Origin: Planctomycetota bacterium | Lineage (GTDB): Bacteria; Planctomycetota; UBA1135; GCA-002686595 | Direction of reading: 5' to 3' | DNA: 64,000 nt | Assembly: GCA_036006425.1 (NCBI GenBank) | Contig: DASYPQ010000022.1 | Location: forward strand, 337,938-401,937 | Part shown: piece after piece, positions 24,749 to 60,699 of the stretch | Layout of the letters: the number at the start of each line of letters is the position of its first letter | How positions within the stretch are numbered: the first letter of the stretch is position 1 | Position numbers and translations under genes: made by a program | Notes under the pieces: generated by a model | What the model was told of the DNA's origin: nothing | The model's input: only the letters and a program-made list of their open reading frames with translations | Databases searched by the model: none

Positions 24749-26457
24749 GGCCTGGAGCGTACCGCGGCGTCGAGCTTCCGCTGAACGTCGCGATCACCGG
24801 GTCGGAGCTCGAGCGCCTTCGTGAAGTGCGCGATCGCCTCGGCGCGGCGGCCGACGAGCATCAAGGCACTCCCGAGGTTCAGGTGCGCGTCGACGAGGTC
24901 CGGGTTCGACTGCAGCGCGGCCTCGAAGTGCGCGATCGCCGCGTCGAGATGGCCTTGCGCCGCGAGGAGCCGGCCGAGGTTGTGGTGCGCCTCCGGGAGC
25001 GCGGGCGACCAGCGCAACGCGGTCTCGTACTTCTCGATCGCTTCCGCGGGACGGCCCGTCAGCTCGAGGACCATACCCTCGTTGCAGTGGGCCTGCGCGT
25101 AGCTCGGGCGCAGGCGCAGCGCCTCCTCGTACTGCGCCATCGCCTCGTCGAGACGGTGCTCGCGCAGGTGCACGCTCCCCAGGATCCCGTGCGCGAGGTA
25201 GTTCGTGGGGAGCACCGCCGCGACGTGCTCGAAGAGCGTCCGGTCGTCCTTCCAGTACCCGACCTGCCGCCAGGTCGCCGCCGTCCATGCGACGGCGACG
25301 ACGACGAGCGCCACGGCACCCGCGCGCTTCGCGAATTCCGCGACGCCGAAGCCGACGGCGATCGCGAGGCCGATCATCGGCACGTACACGTACCGATCGG
25401 CCATCGCCTGCGAGCCGACCTGGACGAGCCCGATCACCGGGACGAGCGTGCCGAGGAACCAGAGCCATCCGACGGCGAGCCAGGGACGGGTCGTCCACTG
25501 CTTCCACGCGAGCACGGTCGCGGCGAGGAGCACGCACGTCGCGCCCGCCACCTGCCAGAAGGGATACGAGTCGATCGGGTGCGGGTAGTACACCGCGAGA
25601 GCCGTCGGCACCAGCGCCTTCCAGAGGTACGCGACGTACGCGACGAGCGCGTTCTCGAGCCGCAGCACGAACGGGACGACGTCGGTGAGCGCCATCGCGC
25701 CCGCCGCGCGCTGGACGAGGAACGTGACGACGCTCGACGCGGCGGCGAGCAGGAACAGCGGGATCTTCTCGCGCACGAGCCACGGCGCTCCCGCGCGCGC
25801 GAGTGGCCACGCGTCCAGCAGGAGCAGCGTGAACGGCAGCGTCACGAGCATCGGCTTCGAGAGGAGACCGAGCACGTAGAACGCGAGCACGGCCGCGTAC
25901 CTCCCCGCTGTCCGCCGCTCCACCCAGCTCACGTACGCCTGCGTCGTCAGGATCCAGAAGAACGCCGACAGGACGTCCTTGCGCTCCGCGGCCCACGCGA
26001 CGGACTCGACGTGCAAGGGATGCAGGCCGAAGACGACGGCGACGAAGGCGCTCGGCCCGATCGACTGCGTCGTCCGCACGAGCAGGCGGAAGAGCAGCAC
26101 CGTGCTCGCGACGTGCAGCGCGAGGCTCGTCAGGTGATGGCCCGCGGGACGCATCCCGTACAGCTCGACGTCGAGCATGTGCGAGATCCACGTCAACGGA
26201 TGCCAGTTCGCCGAGTGACCCGTCGTGAACGCCCACACGATCCCGCGCCAGGTCAATCCCGCTTGCACGTGCGGGCTCTGCGTCAAGTAGTCGTTGTCGT
26301 CGAGGTTGATGAACCCGTTGCCGACGACGCGCGCGTACGCCGCGACGGTCAGGACCGCCAGCGCGATGGAGAGCGAAAGTACGGAACCAGGTTCGCTTTT
26401 TCGCGTCGCGCCGCGCGCGGCGCGAGAAAACGAACCTGGTTCCGTACTTTCCTTCAC
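24745..26457 (-). CDS. TMTC-like GT-C/TPR membrane protein (paralogue 2, tandem duplicate)
   Basis: Same architecture as paralogue 1. Long stretches are nearly identical to it at protein and nucleotide level. The only possible start upstream of TM1 is GTG 26457, in a GTGA overlap with the upstream stop. Confidence 0.75.
   Translation of the reverse strand: MKESTEPGSFSRAARGATRKSEPGSVLSLSIALAVLTVAAYARVVGNGFINLDDNDYLTQSPHVQAGLTWRGIVWAFTTGHSANWHPLTWISHMLDVELYGMRPAGHHLTSLALHVASTVLLFRLLVRTTQSIGPSAFVAVVFGLHPLHVESVAWAAERKDVLSAFFWILTTQAYVSWVERRTAGRYAAVLAFYVLGLLSKPMLVTLPFTLLLLDAWPLARAGAPWLVREKIPLFLLAAASSVVTFLVQRAAGAMALTDVVPFVLRLENALVAYVAYLWKALVPTALAVYYPHPIDSYPFWQVAGATCVLLAATVLAWKQWTTRPWLAVGWLWFLGTLVPVIGLVQVGSQAMADRYVYVPMIGLAIAVGFGVAEFAKRAGAVALVVVAVAWTAATWRQVGYWKDDRTLFEHVAAVLPTNYLAHGILGSVHLREHRLDEAMAQYEEALRLRPSYAQAHCNEGMVLELTGRPAEAIEKYETALRWSPALPEAHHNLGRLLAAQGHLDAAIAHFEAALQSNPDLVDAHLNLGSALMLVGRRAEAIAHFTKALELRPGDRDVQRKLDAAVRSRP
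26375..26451. repeat. ~77-nt imperfect palindrome lying inside the first ~25 codons of the TMTC-like paralogue 2
   Basis: GAAAGTACGGAACCAGGTTCG...CGAACCTGGTTCCGTACTTTC. The arms translate as STEPGS / SEPGSV. The termini resemble those of the 83-nt palindromes at 55453 and 58535. Confidence 0.7.
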
Positions 26458-28864: not shown

Positions 28865-29566
28865 TCAGTCCTCGAGCGAGAACGGCGTGAAGTCCGTCTC
28901 GCGGTCGTAGAAGTCCTCGTTCTCGGCCTTCTTCAGGAACGCGACGACCCTGTACGTTATCGGCGTGCAGATCGCTTCGACCGAGATCTTGAAGCCCCAA
29001 TTGAAGGCGACGACGCCGACGAGCGTCCTCGTCTCCCAGACGCCGAAGAACGCGAGCGGATAGAAGATCAGGCTGTCGACGGCCTGGCCCGCGATCGTCG
29101 AGCCGATCGTGCGCATCCAGAGGAAGCGGCCCGCGGTCCAGACCTTCATCCGCGCGAGCACGTAGGAGTTCACGAAATCGCCGGCCCAGAACGCCAGGAT
29201 CGAGCCGAGGACGATGCGCCACGTGCTGCCGAAGACCTCCTGGATCGCCGGCTGGATGATCTTGTTGTACGGCTCGCTCTCGGCGGGCGGCATCCGGATC
29301 ACGATCTGGCTCATGATCGTCGCGAAGATCATCGCGCCGAAACCGGCCCAGATCACCTTGCGCGCGCGCGCGTAGCCGTACACCTCGGTGAGGACGTCGC
29401 CGAAGATGTAGGCGATCGGGAAGAAGATGTTGCCGGCGCCGAACACGCGCTGACCGAGGATCGGGAACGGGAGGGCGCACGTCTTCGCCGGCCCGATCAG
29501 GTTCGAGCAGAGGAGCACCGTGACGAACGCCGCCATCACGAGGTCGTAGTAGCGGTAGGAGCGCAT
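28865..29566 (-). CDS. yhhQ: queuosine-precursor transporter (YhhQ/DUF165, VUT family)
   Basis: MRSYRYYDLVMAAFVTVLLCSNLIG...FPIAYIFGDVLTEVYGY...DSLIFYPLAFFG. The N-terminal part of ORF 28865..30190 is antisense junk. Confidence 0.85.
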   Translation of the reverse strand: MRSYRYYDLVMAAFVTVLLCSNLIGPAKTCALPFPILGQRVFGAGNIFFPIAYIFGDVLTEVYGYARARKVIWAGFGAMIFATIMSQIVIRMPPAESEPYNKIIQPAIQEVFGSTWRIVLGSILAFWAGDFVNSYVLARMKVWTAGRFLWMRTIGSTIAGQAVDSLIFYPLAFFGVWETRTLVGVVAFNWGFKISVEAICTPITYRVVAFLKKAENEDFYDRETDFTPFSLED

Positions 29567-29568
29567 TC

Positions 29569-29657
29569 GGTGCCGCGACAGTCTGTCACAGGCGCGCCGC
29601 GGGACGAAGCGCGAGGTTGCGAACGGGCTCGATCCTGTGACAAACTGTCGCGGCACC
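29569..29657. promoter_or_regulatory. 24-bp-arm inverted repeat occupying the whole 93-bp divergent intergenic region
   Basis: GGTGCCGCGACAGTCTGTCACAGG-41 nt-CCTGTGACAAACTGTCGCGGCACC. Each arm ends 2 nt before an ATG (29566 minus strand, 29660 plus strand). Confidence 0.55.
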
Positions 29658-29659
29658 GC

Positions 29660-30139
29660 ATGACCGTCCTCGAGCACATGAAGGGGATGAGCCCGGAGCG
29701 CTTCTGCGCGCTGTACCGGAGCCTCGAGCACCAGGGATTCGGCCCGCTCGACGCGGACGTCGCGCGATCGCTGCGGTTCCGGCCCCAGGCGATCCGCAAG
29801 CTGCCGATGGAGCAGCGCGCGAAGCGCGCGCGGATGATCATCGAGTCGACGAAGAACGCGAACCTCGCGTACGAGATCGTCGGCGGGTACCTGATGAAGA
29901 CCAGGAAGGACCTCGTCGTCGGTTTCCTCGACGCGACGGGCGTCAAGCACGAGAACGGGATGATCGAGGACATCGAGGGCGTGAAGCCAGAGCCCGCGAA
30001 GATCGCGGAGGCCGTCGCAGAGCTCGACAAGAAGTTCCCGGCCGACGACGTGACGCTGTACCTCGTGCTGTGCGCGGAGCAGTGGCCCGACGAAAAGGCT
30101 TTCGGGAAGCTGCTCGCGGGCCGCGTCCAGGCGACATGA
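29660..30139 (+). CDS. hypothetical cytoplasmic protein (unknown family)
   Basis: Coding-like composition from MTVLEHMKGMSPERF. Its stop overlaps the next start (ATGA). No motif recognised. Confidence 0.5.
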   Translation: MTVLEHMKGMSPERFCALYRSLEHQGFGPLDADVARSLRFRPQAIRKLPMEQRAKRARMIIESTKNANLAYEIVGGYLMKTRKDLVVGFLDATGVKHENGMIEDIEGVKPEPAKIAEAVAELDKKFPADDVTLYLVLCAEQWPDEKAFGKLLAGRVQAT

Positions 30140-32790: not shown

Positions 32791-32838
32791 GCGGCGTCCA
32801 ACATACGGTGCCGCGACGGGTTGTCACGGAAACGCGCG

Positions 32839-39709: not shown

Positions 39710-42325
39710 GTGCGTATTGCAATCTCCATCGTGGCGGCGTGCGTCTGCTCGGCGACGGCCGCGCTCGCTCAGATCCCCCACGCGGGCCCCGACCAGACGC
39801 TGCTCTACCCGGCGCCCGCGGTGCTCGCCGGCACGGTCGAGGGCGGCGAACCGCTCCGATGGTGGACCGGCGACGGCAACGGACTCTTCGAGAACTATCT
39901 CTTCCGCTACGACGAGGAGACCGGAGTGACGCCCGTCGGACCGCTCCGGACGGCAGGCAGCGGGACGTTCGGGTTCCCGACGGACCTCGTACGCATCGGG
40001 ACGGTCGTGTACGGGCTCGACGCGCTGCGACGCCAGATCTACACCGTCGATCTCGCGACCGGCATCGTGTCGCCGATCGGAACGGCCTGGCCGGCGACCT
40101 ACGCCGACGTCGAGTCGATGACCTACGACCCGGTCGGGGACCGTCTGTTCGCCGTCGACCGCGCGACGCAGCAACTCCTCCGGATCGACCGGTCGAACAA
40201 CGCGGTCACGCCCATCGGCGCGAACACGCTCTCGGCGTTTCCCGAGATCCATTCGCTCGCCTGGCGCGCGTCCGACAGCCGGCTCTACGCCGTCGACCAG
40301 TCGTCGAACGCCATGCTCCGGATCGATCCCGCCACGGGCACGCCGGCGATCCTGTCGCACCTGCCCGCGGATCCGACCGGGAGGATCGAGGAACTCGAGT
40401 TCGTCGGCAACCGCCTGTACGGGGTCCTCGCCATCGACAACGGGCTCACGCTGGTCTCGGCGCGCCTCCAACGGGTCGATCCCGAGCACGGCGTGCTCAT
40501 GAACGTCGGCCCGATCGTGAACCAGGTCTCGGCGCTGTGCCTCCTCGTGGATTCGCTGCCCGAGGACCACGTGTGGTCGAAGCTCTCCGGACCGGGGAAC
40601 GCGGTCTTCTCGGACCCCTACTCGCTGACGCCGACGGTGACGTTCTCGGCTCCGGGCACCTACGTGCTCAAGCTCAAGATGCTCTCGGGTTCGGGCCAGT
40701 CGTTCGACACGGTCACGATCACGCAGACGGAATGGAGCATCTTCACGCCGGACAGCGAGACGCACACGATCTACGTGTCGAGCTCGACGGGGAACGACGC
40801 GTGGAACGGCTTCGCGCCGGACCACTCGGAAGGAGGCGTCAGCGGACCGAAGGCGTCGATGCTCGCCGCCGCGCGGCTCCTGCGGGACGGCTACCCGGAC
40901 TGGCTGCTCTTCAAGGCCGGCGACACATTCGTCGGCAGCATCCAGGATGGCGTCGTCACCGACCACTGGGTCAAGCAAGGGCGTTCGGCGTCGGATCCGA
41001 TGCTCATCTCGAGCTACGGCAGCGGCGCGCGACCGCTGATCGCCTCCGGCACCGCCGACGGCCTGCGGACGTGGAACCAGCTCTACAACGGCCATTACGC
41101 TTCGAACCTCGCGATCGTCGGGCTCGACTTCCACGCGCACACCTACACCGGCGGGAGCGAGAACCCGCACGGTCTGTGGCTGCTCGGAGGCGGCGCGAAC
41201 CTGCTCGTCGAGGATTGCCGGTTCCGCGGCTACACCGGGAACATCGTCATCGGCAGCGACAGTCAGGGCGGCGCCGGGACCCTGACGAACGTCCTCATCC
41301 GGAGGAACGTGATCGTCGACGCGTACACGACGGTCCAGGACGGGGGCGCGCAGGGTCTCTACGCGTCCGACGTGCACGGGCTCGCCGTCCTGGAGAACGT
41401 CTTCGACCACAACGGCTGGGTCGACTCGATCCCCGGCTCCGGTCCGAACTGGTTCCGACGCAACGTCTACATCCAGAACGGGTGCACCGGCGTCGTGTTC
41501 CGCGGGAACATCCTCGCGGGCACGGACGGACTCCAGCAGCGGCCGGGAGGAATCTGCGAGGACAACCTCTTCCTCCGCAATGCGCTCGCGCTGCAGTTCG
41601 GCAGCGGCAACACGCCGGAGCCGGAAGGAGTCACCGGAGCCGTCCGCCGGAACGTGATCCTCGACGGCCGCGACCTGCAATCGGGGAGTCCGCGCGGCTG
41701 GGGGCTCATCATCGGCAACGCGGTCAACACGAGCGTCGACTACAACGTCGTGGCGCACAACGTCGGCGGGACGGCGCCCGATCCGTACGTCTTGAACTTC
41801 GACAACGGTCACGGCAACCCGGTCGGGCTGCAGGACGTGGTCTTCGATCACAACGTCATCTACGACTGGAGCAGCACGGGTCGCGGCGCGCAGCTCGCGT
41901 CGTACCAGACCAACACGATCGTGAACCTCGTGTTGACGAACAACGACGTCCAGAACACGGTCGACACGACGTACCTGCTCGCCCTCAGCGCGCCGACGCG
42001 CGACATCCTCGGCCAGATCCACGGCGCCGGCAATCGCTGGTTCCGCAGCTCCGGGAACGCGAACCGGATGTTCCAGCTCAACAGCGTGGACATGAGCTTC
42101 CAGCTGTTCACGTCGTCGATCGGCGACTCGACCTCGACGTTCGGCGCCGTCGAGAACTACCCCGATCCCACGCGGACGATCGGCTCCTACCACGCGTCGA
42201 TCGGCGGCACGGCGACGCTCGACGCCTTCATGGCGGAAGCGCGGCTGCAGTCCAAGGCGAACTGGCGGTCGCAGTACACCGCGCAGGCCGTGAACACGTA
42301 CATCCGCGCGGGATTCGGCCTCTGA
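39710..42325 (+). CDS. secreted right-handed beta-helix protein with N-terminal propeller-like repeats and a PKD-like domain (paralogue A)
   Basis: Signal peptide MRIAISIVAACVCSATAALA. Repeated L(Y/F)(A/G)VD....L.RID motifs. Long parallel beta-helix region (NVIVDAY..., ENVFDHNGW..., RNVYIQNG..., GNILAGTDG...). Confidence 0.75.
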   Translation: MRIAISIVAACVCSATAALAQIPHAGPDQTLLYPAPAVLAGTVEGGEPLRWWTGDGNGLFENYLFRYDEETGVTPVGPLRTAGSGTFGFPTDLVRIGTVVYGLDALRRQIYTVDLATGIVSPIGTAWPATYADVESMTYDPVGDRLFAVDRATQQLLRIDRSNNAVTPIGANTLSAFPEIHSLAWRASDSRLYAVDQSSNAMLRIDPATGTPAILSHLPADPTGRIEELEFVGNRLYGVLAIDNGLTLVSARLQRVDPEHGVLMNVGPIVNQVSALCLLVDSLPEDHVWSKLSGPGNAVFSDPYSLTPTVTFSAPGTYVLKLKMLSGSGQSFDTVTITQTEWSIFTPDSETHTIYVSSSTGNDAWNGFAPDHSEGGVSGPKASMLAAARLLRDGYPDWLLFKAGDTFVGSIQDGVVTDHWVKQGRSASDPMLISSYGSGARPLIASGTADGLRTWNQLYNGHYASNLAIVGLDFHAHTYTGGSENPHGLWLLGGGANLLVEDCRFRGYTGNIVIGSDSQGGAGTLTNVLIRRNVIVDAYTTVQDGGAQGLYASDVHGLAVLENVFDHNGWVDSIPGSGPNWFRRNVYIQNGCTGVVFRGNILAGTDGLQQRPGGICEDNLFLRNALALQFGSGNTPEPEGVTGAVRRNVILDGRDLQSGSPRGWGLIIGNAVNTSVDYNVVAHNVGGTAPDPYVLNFDNGHGNPVGLQDVVFDHNVIYDWSSTGRGAQLASYQTNTIVNLVLTNNDVQNTVDTTYLLALSAPTRDILGQIHGAGNRWFRSSGNANRMFQLNSVDMSFQLFTSSIGDSTSTFGAVENYPDPTRTIGSYHASIGGTATLDAFMAEARLQSKANWRSQYTAQAVNTYIRAGFGL

Positions 42326-42332
42326 GAACGAA

Positions 42333-42387
42333 CTCACCCCGCTCGTCGCGGGGTGAGTGTGAGTCTCGCTGCCCGCAACCGCGGGCA
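42333..42387. terminator. two hairpins between the convergent paralogues
   Basis: CTCACCCCGC-TCGTC-GCGGGGTGAG (42333-42357) and TGCCCGC-AACC-GCGGGCA (42370-42387). Confidence 0.55.
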
Positions 42388-42407
42388 ACGTCCGTCGCGG
42401 GATCGCC

Positions 42408-44810
42408 CTACGGCATGAATCCGAGCGGCGCCATGCCGAACCCGGCGCGCACGTAGTCGTTCACGGCGTCCGCCGTGTACTGCACGCGCCAGTTCGTCTT
42501 GGACTGCAGCCGCGCTTCCGCCATGAAGGCGTCGAGCGTCGCTGCACCGCCGATCGACGCGTGGTAGGAACCGATCGTCCGGTTCTGATCCGGATAACTG
42601 ATCGGCCCGAACGTCGACGTCGTGTCGTTGATCCCGTTCTTGAAGGCGGTGAACGTCATGTCGACGCCCGCGACCTTGAACATCTGGCCGGCGTTGCCCG
42701 ACTGGCGGTACCACCGGTTGGTCGCCCCGTGGAGCTCCGACAGGAGGTTCGGAGTCGTCGAGGTCATCGACAAGAGGTACGTCGCGTCGACGACGTCCTG
42801 GATGTCGTTGTTGGTCAGGATGATGTTGCGGATGATGTTGCTCTGGTACGACGCGACCTGCGCGTCGCGACCCGTGCTGCCCCAGTCGCACACGACGTTG
42901 TGGTCGAACACGACGTTCTGCATCCCGTTCGGATTGCCGTGGCCGTTGTCGAAGTTCAGCACCCACGGATTGGGGGCCGTCCCGCTGACGTTGTGGGCCA
43001 CGACGTTCTGGTCGACGGTGGTGTTGACCGTGTTGCCGATGATCAGGCCCCAGCCGCGGGGACTGCCGGACTCCAGGTCACGTCCGTCGAGGATCACGTT
43101 CCCGTGGATCGTGCCGGAGACGCCGGCCGGTTCCGGCTCGTTGCCGCTGCCGAACTGCAGAGCGAGCGCATTGCGGAGGAACAGGTTGTTCTCGCAGATG
43201 CCGCCCGGCCGCTGTTGCAGGCCGTCGGTGCCCGAGACGATGTTGCCGCGGAACACGACGCCGGTGCTCCCGTTCTGGAGGTAGACGTTCCGCCGGAACC
43301 AGTTGGGACCGGAGCCGGGGATGCTGTCGACCCAGCCGTTGTGGTCGAACACGTTCTCCTCGATCAAGAGGCCGTTGGCGTCGGACGCGTACAGGCCCTG
43401 GGCTCCGCCGCCGTTGACGATCGTGTACGCGTCGACGACGACGTTCCGACGGATGGCGACGTTCTGCAAGATCCCCGCGGCTCCGTGGCCGTTGCTCCCG
43501 ATCACGATGTTGCCGCAGTAGCCGCGCACGTAGCAGTTCTCGACGAGGGTGTTCGAGCCGCCGCCGAGGAGCCAGATCCCGCGCGGGTTCTCGCTGCCGC
43601 CCCCGTAGGTGTTGGCGTAGAAGTCGAGGCCGACGATCGCGAGATTGCCGGCGTACTGGCCCTGGTACAGCTGATTCCAGGTCCTGAATCCGTCGACGCT
43701 GCCCGACGCGATGATCGGACGTTCGCCCGCGCCGTAGCTCGAGATCAGGATCGGCTCCGTGGCCGAGCGCCCGCGCTTGACCCAGTAGCCGGTCACCGCG
43801 CCGTCGACGATGGAACCGGAGAACGTGTCGCCGCACTTGAAGAGCAGCCAGTCCGGGTAGTTGTTCCGGACGAGCGCCGCGCCGCCGAGGATCGTGCGCT
43901 TCGGCGTGGCTTGGCTGAGGCCGTCGTTCGCGTCGTTCCCCGTGGAGCTCGACACGAAGATCGTCCGCGTGTCGGCGCTCGGAGTGAACACCGTCCACCC
44001 GGCTCCCGAGCCAGCGAGGATGTTCAAGTTCACGTTGCGCGAGTGCAGCGCGGCGTGGGTGGTCGACTCGCGCCACTCGATGATCGACTGGTGCAGGCCG
44101 TTGGAGAGGCCCGCAGTGGCCGGATCGATGATCGCGACGTTCACGTTGACCGTGCCGCCGGGCGCAAGTTGTCCGGACGAGGGCGCGACCGAGAGCCACG
44201 CATCGCTCGCATTGGCCTGCCAATCCAGCGCAGCGGGACCCGTATTCGTCAGCGTGTACGTCTGGTTGTCCGGCGCGAACGGCCCGGACGCAGGTCCCTG
44301 CGTCGCGAAGTCCGTCAACGGAACGAGCACGGAGCTCGGAGGCACCGCCGTGACGGTCAAGTTGCACACGACGTTGAAGTCGGGTTCCGACGTCGTGTCA
44401 TTGTGGAACGTCAACGTCTCGGAGTAGAGCCCCGCGGGCAAGCCCTGGGCGAACGCGCGGTCCAGGTCGACCTGCACACTGTCCCGCACGTGAGGCTGCA
44501 GGAGACCGTTGTCCGGAGTCACGTCGACGAAACTCGGCACGGAAGGCACCGACCAGCGCAGATCCTGGTGGCTGCGATTCCCGAGAACCACGCTGAAGCT
44601 GGTGCTCGAGAACGGTCCACCGACTGGCCCGGTGACGTCCCACGTCGTCGGGCCTCCATACCTCAAATCCGTCGAACCTTGCGGGCTCGCCGTGCTCACT
44701 GTCGCGAGCACCGCGACGACGAGCGCCCCTTGCCACCATCTAGCGCCACGTTTTGCGTTCGGGCGTTCGCTCCGACTTCCGCCAAGTCGCAGTCCACAAA
44801 TCAATTCCAT
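42408..44810 (-). CDS. secreted right-handed beta-helix protein with two BACON-like N-terminal domains (paralogue B)
   Basis: ATG 44810 is preceded by GAGGGGATCAAAA. The C-terminal ~540 aa align residue for residue with paralogue A (for example NWFRRNVY(I/L)QNG.TGVVFRGNI..GTDGLQQRPGGICE.NLFLRNALALQFGSGN). Confidence 0.75.
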   Translation of the reverse strand: MELICGLRLGGSRSERPNAKRGARWWQGALVVAVLATVSTASPQGSTDLRYGGPTTWDVTGPVGGPFSSTSFSVVLGNRSHQDLRWSVPSVPSFVDVTPDNGLLQPHVRDSVQVDLDRAFAQGLPAGLYSETLTFHNDTTSEPDFNVVCNLTVTAVPPSSVLVPLTDFATQGPASGPFAPDNQTYTLTNTGPAALDWQANASDAWLSVAPSSGQLAPGGTVNVNVAIIDPATAGLSNGLHQSIIEWRESTTHAALHSRNVNLNILAGSGAGWTVFTPSADTRTIFVSSSTGNDANDGLSQATPKRTILGGAALVRNNYPDWLLFKCGDTFSGSIVDGAVTGYWVKRGRSATEPILISSYGAGERPIIASGSVDGFRTWNQLYQGQYAGNLAIVGLDFYANTYGGGSENPRGIWLLGGGSNTLVENCYVRGYCGNIVIGSNGHGAAGILQNVAIRRNVVVDAYTIVNGGGAQGLYASDANGLLIEENVFDHNGWVDSIPGSGPNWFRRNVYLQNGSTGVVFRGNIVSGTDGLQQRPGGICENNLFLRNALALQFGSGNEPEPAGVSGTIHGNVILDGRDLESGSPRGWGLIIGNTVNTTVDQNVVAHNVSGTAPNPWVLNFDNGHGNPNGMQNVVFDHNVVCDWGSTGRDAQVASYQSNIIRNIILTNNDIQDVVDATYLLSMTSTTPNLLSELHGATNRWYRQSGNAGQMFKVAGVDMTFTAFKNGINDTTSTFGPISYPDQNRTIGSYHASIGGAATLDAFMAEARLQSKTNWRVQYTADAVNDYVRAGFGMAPLGFMP

Positions 44811-45277
44811 TTTTGATCCCCTCTTCTCGAATGGACCCCTGAAAGAGCGCACGCGCCCCTGGCGAGGCGCGGGCCAACTGCACCGCGTGATGCCGCACGC
44901 GTTGCGTCGGACCATAGCAGGTGCCCCGGAATGCCGGAACCCCAAATCTCCTGCTACGTGACCTTCTGCCGGGTTCGCGACGCGGACGCTGACTCCTCGA
45001 GAGACGCAGCGTCCATGCTGCGGACCCACCACTTCTCCAGGCTCCTATCGCTTCGCGCGCCCGCGAATCTTGAGCGCAATGAAGACCTGCGCGCGCCCGG
45101 ATCCCCGCGACAGGGTGAGCGACTCCGCACGTCGTTCTCCACAGCACGCGCACGTCCCGCGGGAAACACCACAAAACCCAGTGGTTGGAGTCCGCTGCGA
45201 CCACGACATCTTCCGCGTGAGACTTTCGTTCGGCGCGCGCACTGGCCGCGCGCCGCGCGGACGTTAAGCTCGCGCCC

Positions 45278-52676: not shown

Positions 52677-55514
52677 ATGACTCCCGGACGCGACACCGAA
52701 GGCTGGCAGGTCACCCCTCTCGAGTCCTTCCCTCCGATGGAGAAGTGGGACGACTGGGTCGAGTACGACGCCGCGGCCTGGCCGCGCAAGGTCGAGAAGC
52801 ACTACATGCTCGTGCCGACGACCTGCTTCAACTGCGAGGCGGCGTGCGGGCTCGTCGCGTACGTCGACAAGGAGACGCGCGCGATCCGCAAGCTCGAGGG
52901 GAATCCCTTCCACCCCGGCTCGCGCGGCAAGAACTGCGCGAAGGGTCCGGCGACGCTCAACCAGATCCAGGATCCCGGCCGCATCCTCTATCCGATGAAG
53001 CGCGTCGGTCCGCGCGGCTCGGGGAAGTTCGCGCGCGCGAGCTGGGACGAAGCCCTCGACGTCTTCGCCGCGGCGATCCGCAAGGCGATCGTCGAAGGAC
53101 GCAAGACCGAGGTCATGTACCACGTCGGCCGACCGGGCCACGACGGCTACATGGACCGCGTCCTCCAGAGCTGGGGCGTCGACGGGCACAACAGCCACAC
53201 GAACGTCTGCTCCGCGGCCGCGCGACTCGGCTACGCGCTGTGGAGCGGCGCCGACCGTCCGTCGCCCGACCACGAGAACGCGAAGTTCATGCTCCTCCTC
53301 TCGTCGCACCTCGAGACGGGGCACTACTTCAACCCGCACGCGCAGCGGATCATCGAAGGCAAGATGCGCGGCGCGAAGCTCGCCGTCGTCGACGTGCGCC
53401 TCTCGAACACGGCTTCGATGGCCGACTTCTGGCTCGCCCCGTGGCCCGGCACCGAGGCGTTCCTCCTCCTCGCGATGGCCCACGTCATCCTCGAGGAGAA
53501 GCTGTACGACCGCGCGTTCCTCGAGACCTGGGGGAACTGGCGCGAGACGCTCGAAGCGCTCGCTCCGGGCTCTCCGCCCAGCGTCGACGCGTTCCTCGAG
53601 GCGCTGCGGAAGCACTACGCGCGCTTCACGCCCGAAGCCGCGGAGGCGGAGTGCGGCGTCGCGAAGGAGACGGTCGTCGCCGTCGCGCGCGAGATCGGCG
53701 CCGCGGGCAGCGCCTTCGCCACGCACGTCTGGCGCAACGCGGCCTCGGGCAACCTCGGCGGATGGCAGGTCGCGCGCGCGCTCCAGTTCCTGTGTGTGCT
53801 CGTCGGATCGGTCGGCGCGAAGGGCGGGACGAACCTGAACACGCAGGACAAGTTCGTGCCCCCGCCGTTCCTGAAGCCGCCCGCGCAGGGCGTGTGGAAC
53901 GAGCTCCTCTATCCGCGCGAGTGGCCGCTCAGCCACCACGAGCTCTCCTACCTCCTCCCCCACTTCCTCCTCGAAGGCCGCGGCAAGCTCGCCGCGTACT
54001 TCACGCGCGTCTACAACCCGGTGTGGACGAATCCGGACGGGATGATCTGGGAGCAGGTGCTGCGCGACGAATCGAAGATCGAGCTTCACGCGGCGCTGAC
54101 GCCGACCTGGAGCGAGACGGCGCAGTACGCGGACTGGGTGCTGCCGATGGGCCTCGGCGCCGAGCGGCACGACTTGATGAGCCAGGAGACGCACGCGGAG
54201 AAGTGGATCGGCTTCCGCCAGCCCGTCGTGCGCGTGATGCGCGAGCGCCTCGGCGAGAAGGTCGAGTGGACGCGCGACGCGAATCCCGGAGAGGTGTGGG
54301 AGGAAGACGAGTTCTGGATCTCGCTCTCGTGGCGGATCGACCCGGACGGCTCGCTCGGGATCCGCAAGTACTACGAATCGCCGTACCGGAAATCGCAGCA
54401 GATCACGGTGGACGAGTACTACCGCTGGATCTTCGAGAACACGGTGCCCGGGTTGCCGGAGGAGGCGAAGAAGAAGGGCCTCTCGGCGCTCGAGTACATG
54501 CGGCGCTACGGGGCGTTCCTCGTCGAGAAGGAGACCTGGGAAGGCCACGCGAAGAAGCTCTCGGCCGCGGAACTCGAGGCGGCGAGCGTCGACGAGGCGT
54601 CGAAGACCGTGACGAAGGCCGGGAAACCGATCGGCATCGTCGCCGACAGCGCGCCGCGGATCGGATTCACGACGCCGTCGCGGCGCCTCGAGTTCTTCAG
54701 CAAGACGATGGTCGAGTGGGGTTGGCCCGAGTTCGCGCTGCCCGAGTACATCGAGAGCCACGTGCACCGGAAGCATCTCGATCGAGCCAAGGGCGAGTAC
54801 GCGCTCGTGCCGACGTTCCGGCTGCCGACCTTGATCCACACGCGGTCGGGCAACGCGAAGTGGCTGTACGAGCTCTCGAACACGAATCCGGTGTGGATCC
54901 ACCCGGAGGACGCGGAGCGGATCGGCGTCGAGACGACCGACCTCGTGCGCATCTCGACGCGGATCGGCCACTTCGTGAACAAGGCCTGGGTGACGGAAGG
55001 CGTGCGGCCGGGGATCGTCGCGTGCAGCCACCACCTCGGCCGCTGGCGTCTGTTCGACGACAACGGGACGGACAAGTGGGCGAGCTGCAAGGTCGCGCGC
55101 GAGGAGACGGCGCCCGGGAAGTTCCGGTTCAGACGCCTCGAGGACGTCGGGCCGTTCGAGAGCAGCGATCCGGACAGCAAACGCGTGTGGTGGAGCGACG
55201 GCGGTGTGCACCAGAACCTGACGTTCCCGGTGCAGCCGGATCCGGTGTCGGGGATGCACTGCTGGCACCAGCGCGTGCGCGTGGAGCGAGCGGGCGCGGA
55301 CGACCGGTACGGCGACGTCGAGGTCGACACCGCGAAGTCGATGGCGATCTACCGCGAGTGGGTGGCGCTGGCGCGGCCGGCGCCGGGGCCCGGCGGATTG
55401 CGGCGACCGCTGCACTTCGCGCGCGCGGTGCGGCCGGCGCCGGAAGCGTACCGTACGGAGCCAGAGCAGATTCTCAACGATTTCGGCCGGGCAGTGCCCG
55501 GTCGAAATCGTTGA
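52677..55514 (+). CDS. molybdopterin (bis-MGD) oxidoreductase catalytic subunit, no Tat signal
   Basis: FS0 cluster motif CFNCEAACG...NCAKG. Mo-bisPGD and C-terminal barrel regions. The last 20 codons and the TGA lie inside the 83-nt palindromic element. Confidence 0.85.
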   Translation: MTPGRDTEGWQVTPLESFPPMEKWDDWVEYDAAAWPRKVEKHYMLVPTTCFNCEAACGLVAYVDKETRAIRKLEGNPFHPGSRGKNCAKGPATLNQIQDPGRILYPMKRVGPRGSGKFARASWDEALDVFAAAIRKAIVEGRKTEVMYHVGRPGHDGYMDRVLQSWGVDGHNSHTNVCSAAARLGYALWSGADRPSPDHENAKFMLLLSSHLETGHYFNPHAQRIIEGKMRGAKLAVVDVRLSNTASMADFWLAPWPGTEAFLLLAMAHVILEEKLYDRAFLETWGNWRETLEALAPGSPPSVDAFLEALRKHYARFTPEAAEAECGVAKETVVAVAREIGAAGSAFATHVWRNAASGNLGGWQVARALQFLCVLVGSVGAKGGTNLNTQDKFVPPPFLKPPAQGVWNELLYPREWPLSHHELSYLLPHFLLEGRGKLAAYFTRVYNPVWTNPDGMIWEQVLRDESKIELHAALTPTWSETAQYADWVLPMGLGAERHDLMSQETHAEKWIGFRQPVVRVMRERLGEKVEWTRDANPGEVWEEDEFWISLSWRIDPDGSLGIRKYYESPYRKSQQITVDEYYRWIFENTVPGLPEEAKKKGLSALEYMRRYGAFLVEKETWEGHAKKLSAAELEAASVDEASKTVTKAGKPIGIVADSAPRIGFTTPSRRLEFFSKTMVEWGWPEFALPEYIESHVHRKHLDRAKGEYALVPTFRLPTLIHTRSGNAKWLYELSNTNPVWIHPEDAERIGVETTDLVRISTRIGHFVNKAWVTEGVRPGIVACSHHLGRWRLFDDNGTDKWASCKVAREETAPGKFRFRRLEDVGPFESSDPDSKRVWWSDGGVHQNLTFPVQPDPVSGMHCWHQRVRVERAGADDRYGDVEVDTAKSMAIYREWVALARPAPGPGGLRRPLHFARAVRPAPEAYRTEPEQILNDFGRAVPGRNR

Positions 55515-55535
55515 GAATCTGCTCTGGCTCCGTAC
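55453..55535. repeat. 83-nt near-perfect palindromic element, copy A
   Basis: GTACGGAGCCAGAGCAGATTCTCAACGATTTCGGCCGGGCAGTGCCCGGTCGAAATCGTTGAGAATCTGCTCTGGCTCCGTAC. One mismatch in a ~40-bp stem. Confidence 0.9.
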
Positions 55536-58474
55536 TACCGCAGCTCGATGACGGTCGGGGCGCGTTGCGCGCGATCGGGCCCGACCTCGACGGTCGCACT
55601 GCCGCGCAACCCGCTGTCCGTGCGCGCGTCGATGCGGAATCGACCGGCGGGGAGCACGAAGCCGAAGAGGCGTACTTTCCCGTCCTGCATCGCGGCCCGG
55701 AACCACGAGCCGTTGCGCACGACGACTTCACCGTGCTCGTCGCGAGCCTCCGAATCGAGCGTCGTCCACTGCGCGTCCGCGTCGGCGAACACGCAATCGA
55801 ACTCGAGCTGGAATCCTTGTTCGGTGTGGAGCTCCACGCGCGTCGTCACGCCGGACTTGATCTCGACCTGGTTCCCGCGGAGGAACCGGTCGCCGCCCCA
55901 TCCGAGATGCACGGTCCAGCTCCCCGGCTCGAGCGGGCGCGATCGGAAGACGTCTCCGTCGAGGACCATCTCCTCCGTCCCGTGTCCCTCCCGATCGAGG
56001 ACGGGCGGCCGGGTCGTGCCGAGCCCCGCGACCGGGATCTCGAGCAGGCCCGCCGCAGCCGGCTGGATGACGCCGACGTCCTCGGTCCCACCCGAGCGCA
56101 ACTCGAAGCGATCCGTCCGGAGCAGGGTCTGGCCCCCGCGCATGATGCGCAGGTCGTAGCGTCCCGCCAGGAGCGGGCCGTAGTCGAACGCGCCGGTGTG
56201 CGGGTCGAACTCGACGTAGCGACCGCTGTTGCTCGACTCCGGATAGCAGACGAGCTTGATGCCCGCAGGTTCACCGCCGTCCTCGCCGCGCAGAATCCCG
56301 CGGACGCGCGCGTCGGCGATGCGCGCGTTCTCCACGACGATCTCCACGTCCGTCGAGCCCGGTGCCGCGGCCTTGCGCTCGCCCCGCGGAGGAATCGGCA
56401 TCTCCTTGGGAGCGGAGGTCTGCACGTCGTACCGGTGATCGGCATCGAGGTTCGGGAGAACGAAGCGACCCTGCTCGTCGGTCTTCGTGTTTCGTGGATA
56501 CGCGTTGCCGTAGGGCACCGGCTGGCCGTACACGTTCCACCCGACGAGCGGATGTCGCTCGGTATCGACGATGCGCCCGGAAATCGTCAAGCCGGGATCC
56601 AGCGCGAGCTCGACGTGCGCCGTCTCGCCCGAGGTGCAACGCACGCGCGCGGTCGCCTTGCCGAGCTCGGTGTGCGTCGACACGCTCGCGTGCACCTCCT
56701 GCTCGCCGGACGCGACCCAACCGAGGTCGAATCGTCCGTCGGAGGCCGTCGTCGCGCGCGGCGGCGGGAACTCGTCGAAGTGCCAGCCGCCTCCCCACTC
56801 CGCGGCCGCGACGACGCGCGCGCCCGCGACCGGATGCCCTTCGCGGTCGACGACGCGCCCTTTGATCCTGGCGGGATCCTGGAGCACGACGTCGATCCGG
56901 TTCGCGTGATGCGTGCTCATTTCGACGGTGCCGTCCCAGCGCGGCCAGCCGCGAGCGGCGACGAACACGGGTTGACTGCCTTCGGGGAGCGCGCCGGCGT
57001 ACGTGAACCGACCCTCGGCGTCCGTCTCCACGGGGACCGGACTCGGGTTCTCGCCGCGCGTGCCGTCCGGCAGCTCGATGATGCCGCCGCCGCGCGCGCC
57101 GATCTTGACGAGCGCGCCGGCGATCGGGAGCCCGCGCGGATCGCGGACCGTTCCCTCGACGTCCCCTCCCGCGGCGCCGAGGTGCAGGACCGCGACCGCG
57201 TTTCCGTTCGGACCGAGCTGGAGATCCGGCATCTCGAGGATCGGAGAAGGAGTCCGGCCCGATGCGCGTGCCCCGATCCTTGCGTCGGACGGAAGTCCTT
57301 CGACGCGGAACGCGCCGTCGCGGCCCGCGCGTCGCAGGAAGTGGAACCGACTCGAAGGGAATCGGATCGTCTCGCTCCAGATCTCGGCGTCCGCGACGGG
57401 GTTTCCATCGGTGTCGAGCACGCAACCTTCGATCGCGACGCCTGCGGGGAGCATGAACTCGACCTCGCGCTCCGTCCCCACCGCGACATCGGCCGTGAAG
57501 CGTGCTCCACGGTCGACCCAGAGCGCAACCTTGCCGCCGAAGAGCGCGGGGAAGCGCACTCGACCGTCGGAATCCGTCCGACGGCGGAAGTACTCGTCGC
57601 GCGGCGCGGGATCGTTCGTGCAGGAGACGTCCATCGAGACGTCGTTCGCAGGCCGCCCGTCGGCCCACTTCAAGCGCACGACGAGCGCCCCCGTTTCGTT
57701 TCCGGACACCGCGGGAGCGCTCGCGGCCTCGCGATCCGGTGCAGCAGCGATCGCCAATCCCTCGGACGCAGCCACCGGCGGCGGCGCGTCGAGGACCGGC
57801 GCCGCGGCGACGGACGCCGACCGGATTCCGCGTTGCGCCTCCCATGGAATCGAACGCCATGCAACAGCCGCGAGCAGGACGACCACGACCGCGGCCACGA
57901 GCACCTTCTTCATGATCCCGACTCCTCCCGTCGCTGCGATCGGCAGGAGTGCGGCGAACCACGCTCCTCGATCTCCGTTGAACCGACCGTCGAGCCGCTG
58001 CCGCAGCTCGTGGATCGCGCGGTGGAGGCGCGTCTTGACCGTCTTCACGGGGACCCCGAGGCGCTCGGCGATCGCGTCGGGCTCGAGCCCCTCCCAGTAC
58101 CGCAAGGACACCGTCGTCCGGTACGGCTCGCGCAGCGCGAGCACGCATTCGAGCACCACGCGCGAGGCCTCGAGCTGCTCGAGCGCGGCGACGTGGGAGG
58201 GCTGACCCTCCTTGCGCGCGACCTCGCTCTCGCGCGCGTGCCTGCGGACGCTCGCGCGACGGCGATCGAGCGCGAGGCGCCGCGCGACGGTGCCCAGCCA
58301 ACCGCGCAGGGCCGAACGGCTCTTCGGCGGCCGCTCGAGCGCGACGACGAACGTCTCCTGGATCAGGTCCTCCGCATCGGCCTCGTCGCGCACGAGCGCG
58401 TGCGCGAGACGTCGCAGCGAACCTGCGTGCCGCGCGAGCTCGTCGGAATCGGCGAACCCCGCGGCGAGGGACAT
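55535..58474 (-). CDS. ECF sigma factor fused to a transmembrane helix and ~730-aa extracytoplasmic carboxypeptidase-regulatory-like repeat region
   Basis: ATG 58474 is preceded by GGAGGAAG. Region 2 DAEDLIQETFVVAL, region 4 EPDAIAERLGVPVKTVKTRLHRA, TM IMKKVLVAAVVVVLLAAVAW. At least five G.V.D..G.P.A.A.. Ig-like repeats follow. Confidence 0.75.
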   Translation of the reverse strand: MSLAAGFADSDELARHAGSLRRLAHALVRDEADAEDLIQETFVVALERPPKSRSALRGWLGTVARRLALDRRRASVRRHARESEVARKEGQPSHVAALEQLEASRVVLECVLALREPYRTTVSLRYWEGLEPDAIAERLGVPVKTVKTRLHRAIHELRQRLDGRFNGDRGAWFAALLPIAATGGVGIMKKVLVAAVVVVLLAAVAWRSIPWEAQRGIRSASVAAAPVLDAPPPVAASEGLAIAAAPDREAASAPAVSGNETGALVVRLKWADGRPANDVSMDVSCTNDPAPRDEYFRRRTDSDGRVRFPALFGGKVALWVDRGARFTADVAVGTEREVEFMLPAGVAIEGCVLDTDGNPVADAEIWSETIRFPSSRFHFLRRAGRDGAFRVEGLPSDARIGARASGRTPSPILEMPDLQLGPNGNAVAVLHLGAAGGDVEGTVRDPRGLPIAGALVKIGARGGGIIELPDGTRGENPSPVPVETDAEGRFTYAGALPEGSQPVFVAARGWPRWDGTVEMSTHHANRIDVVLQDPARIKGRVVDREGHPVAGARVVAAAEWGGGWHFDEFPPPRATTASDGRFDLGWVASGEQEVHASVSTHTELGKATARVRCTSGETAHVELALDPGLTISGRIVDTERHPLVGWNVYGQPVPYGNAYPRNTKTDEQGRFVLPNLDADHRYDVQTSAPKEMPIPPRGERKAAAPGSTDVEIVVENARIADARVRGILRGEDGGEPAGIKLVCYPESSNSGRYVEFDPHTGAFDYGPLLAGRYDLRIMRGGQTLLRTDRFELRSGGTEDVGVIQPAAAGLLEIPVAGLGTTRPPVLDREGHGTEEMVLDGDVFRSRPLEPGSWTVHLGWGGDRFLRGNQVEIKSGVTTRVELHTEQGFQLEFDCVFADADAQWTTLDSEARDEHGEVVVRNGSWFRAAMQDGKVRLFGFVLPAGRFRIDARTDSGLRGSATVEVGPDRAQRAPTVIELR

Positions 58475-58534
58475 GCGATGAGCTTCCTCCACCACTCCCG
58501 AAGACGCCACGGGGCGCCGCGGGACCTCGCGAAA

Positions 58535-58617
58535 GTACGGAGCCAGAGCAGATTCTCAACGATTTCGGCCGGGCAGTGCCCGGCTGAAATCGTTGAGAAT
58601 CTGCTCTGGCTCCGTAC
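58535..58617. repeat. 83-nt near-perfect palindromic element, copy B
   Basis: Identical to copy A at 81 of 83 positions. It differs only in the central CCCGG(TC/CT)GAAAT. Confidence 0.9.
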
Positions 58618-60443
58618 TACCAAAAGATCGCGACGCCGCTGCTCACGTTCCAGGTGTTCCCCGGCGGATTCGGGCAGAACGCCGGCGCCGCGTCGCGGTA
58701 CCAGGTCTGGTACCAGCGCATCGATCCCGGCGCGATCGGATCGCCGAGCGCGGCCGAACGCGCGCTGATCGACGGATCCCCGGCGCCCGGGTAGGCCGCG
58801 GCGCCGCCCGACGCGCTCTTCGTCCCGATCCGCTTCATCGCTCCGCCGACGCAGCGCACGCCGTCGCCGAACACGGCGCCCGAGGTCAGCACCACGTTGC
58901 CTTGGAGGAAGATGCAGAGCGAGGTCGAGAGCATCCCCGTTGCGGACAGCGTCACCGTGTCCGGGCTCGCGGCGCCCGCGGCGAGCAGCACGGCGCCTTC
59001 GCCGAGGATGTCGGAGTTCAAGCAGCCGTGTCCGGGCGATCCCGTGTTCCCGCACGGGCACGCCGTCGGGAGCGATCCGTCGCCGAAGCAGAACGTCTGG
59101 TAGAGGATGTTCGGCAGCTCGTACGCGCCCATGTCGACGATCGGGATCGTGCCGCTCCCGGTGTCCGCCGTCGCCGCCGCGTCCTCGAACCGCGGCGTGA
59201 GATCGAGGTCGAGCGTCGAGGTCGCCGGGACGGCCGCGTTGTTGCCCGCGTCCGCGCACGGCGACGACGCGCTCGTGTGGTAGTCGCCCCCGCCGGGATT
59301 CACGAGCAGCGGATCCGCGGAGATGTTGCCCGTGCCGCCGATCCCGCCTTGCACGCAGGAGTAGCTCACCGTGGTGTTGCCGCTGATCTGGTTCAGCGTC
59401 CCCTGCGCGCCGCCCGGACCCGTGTTGAGGTAGAAGATCGAGTTCGCGATCGTCGTCGCGCCGCCGCTCGCGAGCAGCCCCGCCGCCGCGTTCACGTTCG
59501 AGACGTTGCCGACGACGGTGCAGCCACGGATCGCCGGAGCGGAGCTCGAGGCGACGTAGATCGCGCCTCCACCGCCCGAGCCCGTCGAGGTGTTGCCGTG
59601 GAAGAGGCAGTCGTAGAGCTTCGTCGTCGAGCCGCTGAAGATCTCGACGCCGCCCGCGCGCTGCGCCGTGTTGCCCGCGAAGACGCAGCGGTGGAACTGC
59701 GCGGCGACGCCGTCGAACATGTCGAACGCGCCGCCAAAGGACCCGCCGACGTTCGTGAGGAACGAGCACTCGTAGAACTTCGGGCTGCTCTGGCGGATGT
59801 ATCCCGCTCCCCCGCCGAAAGTGCAGCGGTTGCCGATGACGCGGCAGCGCGTGAAGGTCGGGTTGCTGGCCGAGACGAGCAACAGTCCGCCCCCGCGGTC
59901 GTCGTCGGTCGCGGCCGAGCCGTTCGCGTTGCCGCCGGTGACGACGAAGCCGTCGAAGAGCGCGGTCGCGTTCGCGCCGTTGCCGCGCACGACGTGGTAG
60001 CTGTTCTCGCCGAGGTTGCCGCCGCCGTCGTCGCCCGCGAGGTCGCCGGTCAGCGTCGCGATGTTCACGGCGGGATCGCGTTGGCCGAGGGTCACCTCCC
60101 CGCCCGCGAAGCCGCCGTAGACCTCGACGCCGGTCTTCGTCACGAAGGACTGGGTCCGGTCCGAGCCGGCCGTGGGCTCGTAGGTCCCGTCGGCGACCCA
60201 GATCTGGTCTCCGGCCGTCGACGCCGCGAGTGCCGCCTGGAGGCCGCCGGATCCCTGGAACGCGTCGGCCCAGGTCGAGCCGTTGTTCCCGCCGCTGGCG
60301 AGGGACGCATCGACATAGAGGGTGCCCGCGAAGACCGGGCTCGCCGCGAGGACGACCCCGAGGGCCGCAAGGAAGCGGGAATGGAGCGCGGCGAGGGGTC
60401 GGGAGCGGAGGATCGCGGTGAGTCGGAAGGGATCGGAGCGCAT
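58617..60443 (-). CDS. secreted Pmp-like parallel beta-helix protein with Cys-rich C-terminal module
   Basis: Start at MRSDPFRLTAILRSRPLAALHSRFLAALGVVLAASPVFA. Repeats of the GGG(A/L).....S.P....C.F..N type. The last 157 aa are CFGDGSLPTACPCGNTGSPGHGCLNS...WYRDAAPAFCPNPPGNTWNVSSGVAIFW. Confidence 0.7.
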   Translation of the reverse strand: MRSDPFRLTAILRSRPLAALHSRFLAALGVVLAASPVFAGTLYVDASLASGGNNGSTWADAFQGSGGLQAALAASTAGDQIWVADGTYEPTAGSDRTQSFVTKTGVEVYGGFAGGEVTLGQRDPAVNIATLTGDLAGDDGGGNLGENSYHVVRGNGANATALFDGFVVTGGNANGSAATDDDRGGGLLLVSASNPTFTRCRVIGNRCTFGGGAGYIRQSSPKFYECSFLTNVGGSFGGAFDMFDGVAAQFHRCVFAGNTAQRAGGVEIFSGSTTKLYDCLFHGNTSTGSGGGGAIYVASSSAPAIRGCTVVGNVSNVNAAAGLLASGGATTIANSIFYLNTGPGGAQGTLNQISGNTTVSYSCVQGGIGGTGNISADPLLVNPGGGDYHTSASSPCADAGNNAAVPATSTLDLDLTPRFEDAAATADTGSGTIPIVDMGAYELPNILYQTFCFGDGSLPTACPCGNTGSPGHGCLNSDILGEGAVLLAAGAASPDTVTLSATGMLSTSLCIFLQGNVVLTSGAVFGDGVRCVGGAMKRIGTKSASGGAAAYPGAGDPSISARSAALGDPIAPGSMRWYQTWYRDAAPAFCPNPPGNTWNVSSGVAIFW

Positions 60444-60699
60444 GGGGTTCAGGGGGCAGGGGGTCGGGAGTGCGGAAGCGTCGGATGCTAGCACGCGCGC
60501 GCATCCGCGGAATGCGAACTCCTCCCCAAGCGGCCCGGATCGTGTGAATGAACCCGGTCATCCCCCTGAAAAACGTCGGGCTCGTCGCCCAGGATCGCGC
60601 GCGGAGCGCGTCGGGTGTTCGGTTTGCGAAAGGGCACTGCCTCGCGCTCCGCTTGGTCAGTATGGTTGCGCCCTATATCCACCCCAAAGGAGGTGTCTC

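Follow-up and report, generated by a model that had tools for sequence, protein, structure and literature searches.

The locus and its two hairpin repeats

This analysis concerns a 64,000-nucleotide (nt) stretch of the genome of a Planctomycetota bacterium (contig DASYPQ010000022.1; hereafter, the window) and, within it, two copies, A and B, of a small palindromic repeat that flank a gene for an ECF (extracytoplasmic function) sigma factor fused to CarboxypepD_reg repeats (979 aa in the orthologue P0121). Copy A separates this gene from that of a molybdenum (Mo) oxidoreductase, and copy B from that of a right-handed beta-helix protein (Table 1). A previous examination of the DNA, made without database searches (the sequence-only reading), described two 83-nt palindromes, each capable of folding into a hairpin of about 40 bp and bracketing exactly one gene; repeat comparison and folding bear out the former claim, and the reading frames, the latter.

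The copies form an 87-nt direct repeat (55453-55539 and 58535-58621) that matches at 85 of 87 positions (98%) and includes the TACC which, as had been noted, directly follows each palindrome. Inside the palindromes proper (55453-55535 and 58535-58617), 81 of 83 positions are the same, the sole differences being two neighboring loop-proximal bases (55501-55502, TC versus CT). Each copy comprises 41-nt arms around one central base, with one mismatch (98% self-complementary), and the predicted hairpin of approximately 41 bp has a plus-strand folding energy of -86.8 kcal/mol in A and -85.3 kcal/mol in B. The reverse strands fold almost equally well (-84.0 and -82.3 kcal/mol), as expected of a palindrome at the DNA level. 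Over both strands, the z-scores range from -14.7 to -16.2, with none of 200 shuffled sequences equally stable.

That these are not classical terminators, as previously proposed, is upheld: no T tract follows A or B (at most, copies B and C, the latter a third member described below, are followed on the minus strand by UUUC), and a consensus scan of the 55.0-59.2 kb region predicted neither a canonical intrinsic terminator nor a sigma-70 promoter, so that both were rejected for A and B. A known RNA family was rejected as well, since an Rfam search of the whole window matched no family above the gathering score. The resemblance of the GGAACC core to a -35 box suggested an ECF promoter; no CGTC lies at a fitting distance.

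Copies A and B can be followed into related DNA, using collected genome loci and metagenome contigs that carry elements or their relatives (L-numbers; about 0.5 Mb in all). The orthologous contig L052 holds copy A as a perfect palindrome, and copy B has orthologues in L052 and L055 as well as a diverged version in L060. In the loop of copy B, the window has the triplet AGT (58575-58577) and L052 has ACT (6873-6875), a difference that represents either an inversion of the loop by template switching or a single transversion.

Stop codons and the empty site

The oxidoreductase reading frame runs through 59 nt of copy A and then terminates at a TGA (55512-55514) inside the element. All 36 inspected homologues stop 1-3 residues past a conserved EAYR motif, where the window protein goes on with TEPEQILNDFGRAVPGRNR. 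Given these homologous termini, and given that a relative with an empty site has a stop of its own, the tail and the TGA are element-derived; the same two observations show that copy A is not ancestral coding sequence of the oxidoreductase. The sequence-only reading was correct about the origin of this gene end, and the tail is 19 residues long.

The same reading also credited the element with the stop contexts of the two minus-strand genes. Their TAG codons do share an identical context (GG-TAG-TACGGAGCC). In the relatives L061-L063, however, where site A is free of any element, the ECF gene closes with TAG after CGC, AGG or CGG; the beta-helix genes of relatives close with TGG TAG or TGG TAA, either lacking an element at A or bearing no more than a short hairpin at B. 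Because relatives that lack the site-A element already end in this manner, GG TAG is probably the native context in both window genes, and the element merely abuts the stops. In distant relatives, the site-B orthologue is a short hairpin immediately after the TAG, CGGAACCAGGAATCCCATCGTTCCG (L063:5251-5282, L061:9929-9960), which contains the core motif of the repeat family and could have arisen by decay of a copy or else be an ancestral hairpin.

The empty site is found in L059, which encodes the closest homologue of the oxidoreductase (95% identical) and lacks copy A at the orthologous position. The L059 junction reads GCGTAC AGG GTG TAG gcgcc TCA GTG CAG, with the convergent stops 5 nt apart and each gene using its own; where L059 has 19 nt, the window and L052 have 88 nt. 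Judging from this comparison, the closely packed convergent genes lost both of their native stop regions in the event at A. As L060 carries an arm of the element at the same gene end, the difference may reflect a loss in L059 rather than an insertion.

A dispersed family of inverted-arm elements

The window contains a third member, copy C, which, like the sister family described below, had escaped the sequence-only reading; it shares the termini of A and B (GAAAGTACGGAACCAG...CTGGTTCCGTACTTTC) and has a different interior. The 12-nt terminus GTACGGARCCAG occurs in the window six times, against 0.23 expected. A termini-anchored scan of one genome per species, in a collection to which the window's own genome does not belong, recovered paired palindromic GTACGGARCCAG termini at 47 loci, 59-89 nt long, in 20 species-level metagenome-assembled genomes (MAGs), 19 of these labeled Planctomycetota. 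The richest are two chromosomes, OZ245006.1 (8.07 Mb) with 10 loci and OZ245838.1 (7.19 Mb) with 9. A separate scan with an interior 22-mer specific to the A/B subtype identified 11 soil metagenome contigs representing at least 8 distinct sites; among these contigs, L052 is the orthologue of the window with both copies, and at least 6 further insertion sites are unrelated. Profile searches of the collected loci added further copies, solo arms and partial copies, for a density of about 1 per 10-40 kb in these loci, from which per-genome copy numbers are extrapolated. Nothing similar was found in collections of plasmids, phages and viral contigs, and an origin from any of these was rejected given the absence of matches there.

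Accordingly, A, B and C belong to a chromosomal family of small, probably non-autonomous hairpin repeats that, as far as searched, is confined to a clade of uncultured Planctomycetota. A limited search of the literature found no description of such a family, which suggests that it was previously undescribed; in kind, it is similar to REP (repetitive extragenic palindromic) elements and their REPIN doublets or to miniature inverted-repeat transposable elements (MITEs). Given the density of copies, two of them 3 kb apart are not unusual, and the bracketing of the ECF gene is probably incidental. The sequence-only reading had likened the palindrome to REP/BIME, Correia or ERIC elements; its notion of a dispersed, non-terminator element stands, whereas the bracketing is not cassette-like.

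The copy number and the diversity of contexts also refute a purely local duplication, the outcome to be expected had A and B been the only two copies. A two-copy duplication of local origin, or a cassette boundary peculiar to the ECF gene, such as an integron attC-like or Xer-site module, would explain why the copies are nearly identical, flank a single gene and abut stops, as attC sites do; and the gaac|GTAC...GTAC|gttc flanks of copies in OZ245006 did bring attC sites to mind. These flanks vary, though, and the copies are perfect or near-perfect palindromes with GTACGG ends, dispersed through unrelated contexts in 20 species without forming arrays; they lack GTTRRRY/RYYYAAC cores and the asymmetry of extrahelical bases, and no integrase lies near any copy. 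This explanation is hardly credible.

Anatomy of the arm

The unit of the family is an arm of about 30 nt that starts with GTACGGA(G/A)CCAG, and two inverted arms plus a variable apex make up an element of 59-133 nt (83 nt in A and B). Some 28-30 nt of the arm are conserved within one genome (GTACGGAGCCAGGCTCCGATTCATCACC in OZ245006, GTACGGAGCCAGAGCAGATTCTCAACGATTTCGG in the window lineage), and the apex is hypervariable, ranging from 0 to 30 nt and palindromic or not. The GTAC is invariant and paired with the GTAC of the other arm, and only in the window subtype does it read GTAGTAC together with the flank. In the largest subfamilies, the start of the arm corresponds to 18 nt of a perfect palindrome of 21 nt, GTACGGAGCC-W-GGCTCCGTAC, which also stands alone (L020:4549-4569, L009:480-500) and shows covariation between positions 8 and 14 (GGAGCC-A-GGCTCC or GGAACC-A-GGTTC); the A/B subtype does without this local palindrome. 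That the arm behaves as a unit follows from hybrid copies (L012, L045) that combine arms of two subfamilies. Solo arms are frequent (for example, L050, L060:1347 and L046:4398). In one subfamily, the arm at L004:7905-7993 holds GGTTCGATTCC, which resembles a tRNA T-arm, probably by coincidence.

For a stem of 34 pairs scored across 46 elements from all genomes, Watson-Crick or wobble pairing accounts for 92.8% of the cells, compared to 31-39% in controls with slid partners; changes on both sides occur at 24 of the 34 pairs, and private compensated changes are common among the copies. The variable interior has few wobble pairs (11, as opposed to 33 outright mismatches). The constraint, therefore, acts on DNA complementarity rather than on RNA pairing, and selection at the RNA level, for which an enrichment of wobble pairs would be expected, is unsupported.

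A sister family is present as well, represented in the window by an inverted pair and a solo arm that came up in the repeat comparison. Its terminus, G or A followed by TACGGTGCC... (G or A followed by TACGGTGCCGCGACAG), and the terminus of the A/B subtype are related. Unlike members of the main family, the pair near 29.56 kb lies between divergent open reading frames (ORFs), with CAT and ATG triplets at its outer ends, and the arm near 32.80 kb lies just upstream of the start of a minus-strand ORF. The sister family may have a role in 5' regions or in regulation.

Flanks, target sites and nesting

In many members elsewhere, the palindrome extends past the GTAC ends, which the sequence-only reading had missed. 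The flanking positions from -1 to -6 are paired in 85, 83, 76, 72, 57 and 59% of the copies, and the perfect outer extension averages 5.2 nt, against 0.33 expected, and reaches 20-32 nt. Inverted repeats of the flanks at k=3 were found in 26 of 46 elements (2.3 expected), whereas direct repeats are missing (0 of 46 at k=3, 1 of 46 at k=4), on which ground target-site duplication was rejected, save for a conceivable TA concealed within GTAC. The single 4-nt case is the TACC...TACC around copy A, probably due to chance or to a CGTAC-CGTAC micro-duplication.

These flanks bear on the possibility that the family consists of conventional MITEs derived from a DDE insertion sequence (IS), for instance, one of the IS630/Tc1-like type, in which case the element proper would be CGGAGCC...GGCTCCG, duplicating TA with a preference for G-TA-C, and the GTAC ends would be the target plus its duplication. 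As in many MITEs, terminal inverted repeats are present, here making up the whole element around a variable interior; the variants ATAC...GTAT and ATAC...GTAC fit N-TA-N' targets, and the left edge of the site-A discrepancy is a native GTAC (GCGTAC|). What a TA duplication cannot explain is complementarity that runs 1-6 and up to 32 nt past the GTAC into unique flanks; the empty site, moreover, is not reducible to a single GTAC, and neither a full-length IS with these ends nor a DDE transposase was detected in the collected loci, nor do any arm pairs there enclose a transposase-like ORF. The exact nesting of elements at apices, to which we turn now, is also unexpected for a TA-targeting element. 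On balance, a MITE origin of this kind is distinctly unlikely.

In L043, a member of the family sits at the apex of a diverged member; nesting is seen in L018, too, and at L051:1131 and L054:2390, the sister family is nested inside A/B-type elements. Since the elements occupy little of the genome, apex nesting is far more frequent than chance would predict. Tandem duplications of half-elements, which take in 5-13 nt of unique flank, show the arrangements L-L-R-R (L018), L-L-R (L022) and L-R-R (L007), and at least 7 short duplications break at the center of CC-W-GG.

Gene ends and gene loss

By a crude gene call based on GC content at third codon positions, the extragenic copies lie mostly downstream of genes or between convergent ones (24 convergent, 22 tandem and 5 divergent settings), typically 0-35 nt from a stop, and in 48 of the 92 arms a stop triplet is directed toward the element no more than 6 nt away (19% expected). 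This strong bias toward gene 3' ends and convergent pairs, together with the enrichment of inward-facing stop triplets, would suit a signal that functions for the host, namely, a lineage-specific bidirectional terminator independent of a U tract, a stabilizer of mRNA 3' ends or a site for a dimeric protein on the 21-bp GTACGGAGCC-W-GGCTCCGTAC, kept at gene ends by selection and spread only by recombination or duplication. Along the same lines, a related site-B hairpin is kept down to about 50% protein identity (L063; L060), the minimal 21-nt palindrome occurs alone, and canonical terminators are not predicted at these gene ends. Yet purifying selection acting on random insertions would account for the 3'-end bias just as well. 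The presence of site A differs between close relatives, with the oxidoreductase paying for it by a 19-residue tail; wobble pairs are not favored; the A/B subtype lacks the local 21-bp palindrome; and solo arms, duplicated half-elements and copies in decay are frequently seen. An essentially host-functional origin, therefore, appears unlikely.

Comparison of gene order around the ECF gene (Table 1) adds a further aspect. Relative to the order in the outgroup, the window is missing Pro_CA (of which there is no gene anywhere in the 64 kb), x and y, and L060 is missing the ECF gene. Copy B is orthologous to the element in L060 together with the beta-helix flank of the latter, and the Pro_CA of L060 is 81-83% identical to the outgroup genes. 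Altogether, there are three gene-loss junctions at this locus, resulting from independent losses, and each carries a copy or an arm, the pattern that recombination between dispersed copies would leave. Copies A and B around the ECF gene could themselves serve as recombination substrates, from which the arrangement of L060 could arise.

Table 1. Features of the repeat family at the locus, elsewhere in the window and in related loci
Feature	Position	Strand	Details
Copy A	55453..55539		83-nt palindrome (41+1+41) plus common TACC; between convergent Mo-oxidoreductase (+) and ECF-fusion (-) genes
Copy B	58535..58621		83-nt palindrome plus TACC; between beta-helix stop and ECF-fusion start region, both -
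Copy C	26375..26451		Third member, 37+3+37; -68.5 kcal/mol; 6 nt past stop of a minus-strand gene
Mo-oxidoreductase gene	52677..55514	+	ORF; Pfam Fe4S4, Molybdopterin and Molydop_binding domains
Element-encoded C-terminal extension TEPEQILNDFGRAVPGRNR plus TGA	55455..55514	+	ORF; 36 homologues; L059 ends ...AYRV-TAG
ECF sigma factor fused to CarboxypepD_reg repeats, gene	55535..58510	-	ORF and Pfam; likely true start ATG 58474
ECF-fusion TAG stop	55535..55537	-	G coincides with the final base of copy A; probably native
Right-handed beta-helix protein gene	58617..60494	-	ORF and Pfam
Beta-helix TAG stop	58617..58619	-	G coincides with the final base of copy B; probably native
Gene order, outgroup (L061, L063)			beta-helix > ECF > < Pro_CA < x, y > < oxidoreductase; reference order; L062 agrees over the covered part
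Gene order, window			beta-helix > [B] ECF > [A] < oxidoreductase; Pro_CA, x, y missing
Gene order, L060			beta-helix > [element] < Pro_CA [solo arm] < oxidoreductase; ECF gene missing
Half-element or terminus tandem duplications	L018:3075-3290; L022:610-760; L007:1870-2045; L031:3856; L046:6250; L016:6362; L025:7033; L039:7828		Breakpoints at apex or CC-W-GG center
Sister-family pair	29564..29662		CGGTGCCGCGACAGTnTGTCACAGG (29564-29592) and its inverse (29634-29662), 41 nt apart
Solo arm of sister family	32802..32837	+	Repeat comparison within the window

Relation to known repeats

Among the characterized systems, REP/REPIN elements and their RAYTs (REP-associated tyrosine transposases) come closest: they, too, are short extragenic units present in tens or more copies per chromosome, with inverted doublets that fold as one hairpin alongside singlets (here, solo arms) and clusters, located at 3' ends and between convergent genes, free of target duplications and, apparently, vertically inherited (PMC3116915, PMC3733652). 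The present family differs in that GTAC lies inside the stem, unlike the unpaired GTAG/CGTC, in the longer, near-perfect stems, and in the hypervariable apex that accepts further elements. REP and terminal inverted repeat (TIR) families tied to Y1 transposases exist in Planctomycetes; the feet described for these are GTAG, CnGA and GGGGWSAS, and GTAC is unmentioned (PMC3733652; PMC6006769). In particular, the TIRs of TIRtrons and the hairpins of class 3 TnpA(Y1), which are linked to single-strand HUH enzymes and found mainly in Planctomycetes and Acidobacteria, share with the present family the phylum, the partly or wholly self-complementary inverted repeats and the moderate to high copy number, whereas their feet are CnGA or GGGGWSAS rather than GTACGGAGCC (PMC3733652; PMC6006769).

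The other comparisons, those with ERIC and Correia elements, were made by description. Correia elements of Neisseria duplicate TA and have defined 26-bp TIRs around a non-palindromic core. Like the present family, these MITEs are small, have inverted repeats, lie near gene ends and alter coding ends and transcripts; here, by contrast, there is no target-site duplication, and the whole element is palindromic. Neither the host ranges of ERIC and Correia elements (Enterobacteria and Neisseria, respectively) nor the TA duplication of the latter fit. Insertion into palindromes has a precedent, too: IS1397 and ISKpn1 insert in the loops of REP elements.

Template switching is known to create and maintain perfect hairpins (PMC8794818; PMC7202029). 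Taken jointly, palindrome-loop insertion and quasipalindrome template-switch mutagenesis resemble what is observed here in the placement of copies at hairpin centers, the complementary arms and the flip between AGT and ACT, and differ in being, respectively, the behavior of autonomous IS and a general mutational process rather than a repeat family.

A possible mode of spread

The best reading, to which we assign a probability of about 0.6, is that of a REP/REPIN-like non-autonomous hairpin repeat. It builds on the dispersal of the family, its presence or absence at site A, its location at 3' ends, the complementarity of the arms, the inverted flanks without target-site duplication, the nesting and the gene-loss junctions. 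Under this scenario, the element would spread as a folded single strand, with an enzyme encoded elsewhere in the genome recognizing the foot of the hairpin. This enzyme would most plausibly be a RAYT-like Y1/HUH tyrosine transposase, as suggested by the combination of a hairpin with a conserved foot, the lack of target duplications and the precedent in Planctomycetes (PMC3733652, PMC6006769). New copies would favor the centers of existing palindromes just beyond stop codons, and template switching between the arms at replication would keep, and sometimes extend, the perfect palindrome (PMC7202029, PMC8794818). On transcripts, the stem of approximately 41 bp would incidentally block exonucleases or impede RNA polymerase, as REPs do.

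Several points weigh against this reading. The mobilizing enzyme is purely inferred: in the loci of about 0.5 Mb, no Y1/HUH or other transposase was found next to any copy, neither with an HUH...Y regular expression on ORFs in six frames (0 matches) nor in a phmmer search with E. coli RayT against 3272 ORFs. The conserved GTAC is base-paired and so is not the unpaired GTAG/CGTC tag that defines the described REP superfamilies, and the search pattern itself is partly responsible for the 12-nt terminus being invariant. At site A, the filled and empty states do not make a clean pair, going from 19 to 88 nt, so that the chemistry of joining appears unreadable from them, and the L059 state may be a loss rather than ancestral. 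Maintenance of the arms in situ is not universal, given that the two arms of the element in L060 have diverged from each other.

Alternatively, the family might be a self-nesting hairpin element with its own, undescribed mobilization system, an ancient, vertically inherited replicator of a Planctomycetota clade that also drives gene loss where it has inserted. In that case, the 21-bp palindrome GTACGGAGCC-W-GGCTCCGTAC would be the site of both recognition and cleavage, as suggested by the clustering of duplication breakpoints at CC^WGG, and folded single strands would enter the apices of existing hairpins, those of the family itself and those of the sister family. We consider this scenario possible, if rather unlikely.

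Small hairpin repeats influence gene ends, transcripts and genome rearrangement in bacteria, and have been characterized almost only in Proteobacteria. The paired GTACGGARCCAG arms provide a searchable signature for a clade of uncultured Planctomycetota from soil and freshwater and account for odd C-terminal tails and stop contexts in the annotation of these genomes. The unusual features of the family are the apex nesting, the CC^WGG breakpoints, the existence of a sister family and the copies at gene-loss junctions; and a single locus combines the empty and the filled state of a site with a protein extension and with three gene-loss junctions that each hold a copy. If the enzyme is found, apex nesting and the CC^WGG breakpoints will offer a handle on the target choice of single-strand hairpin elements.

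Other repeats in the window

Several larger repeats were noted as well. Two tandem paralogous genes (23153-25875; 1652-nt period, 74-83% identical) lie just before copy C. A perfectly tandem 99-nt duplication with 96% identity occupies positions 36416-36613, inside or next to a small minus-strand ORF. A 1254-nt inverted repeat (40847-42100 and 42651-43904; 79% complementarity) corresponds to two large, opposed paralogous ORFs (39446-42325 on the plus strand and 42408-45044 on the minus strand), and an inner inverted repeat of 162 nt lies at 42158-42596. Finally, a degenerate array of 69-108-nt repeats rich in GACGCCGTCGCCGTC (8061-8728), inside a 1364-aa minus-strand ORF, probably encodes Asp/Gly-rich repeats of the calcium-binding type.

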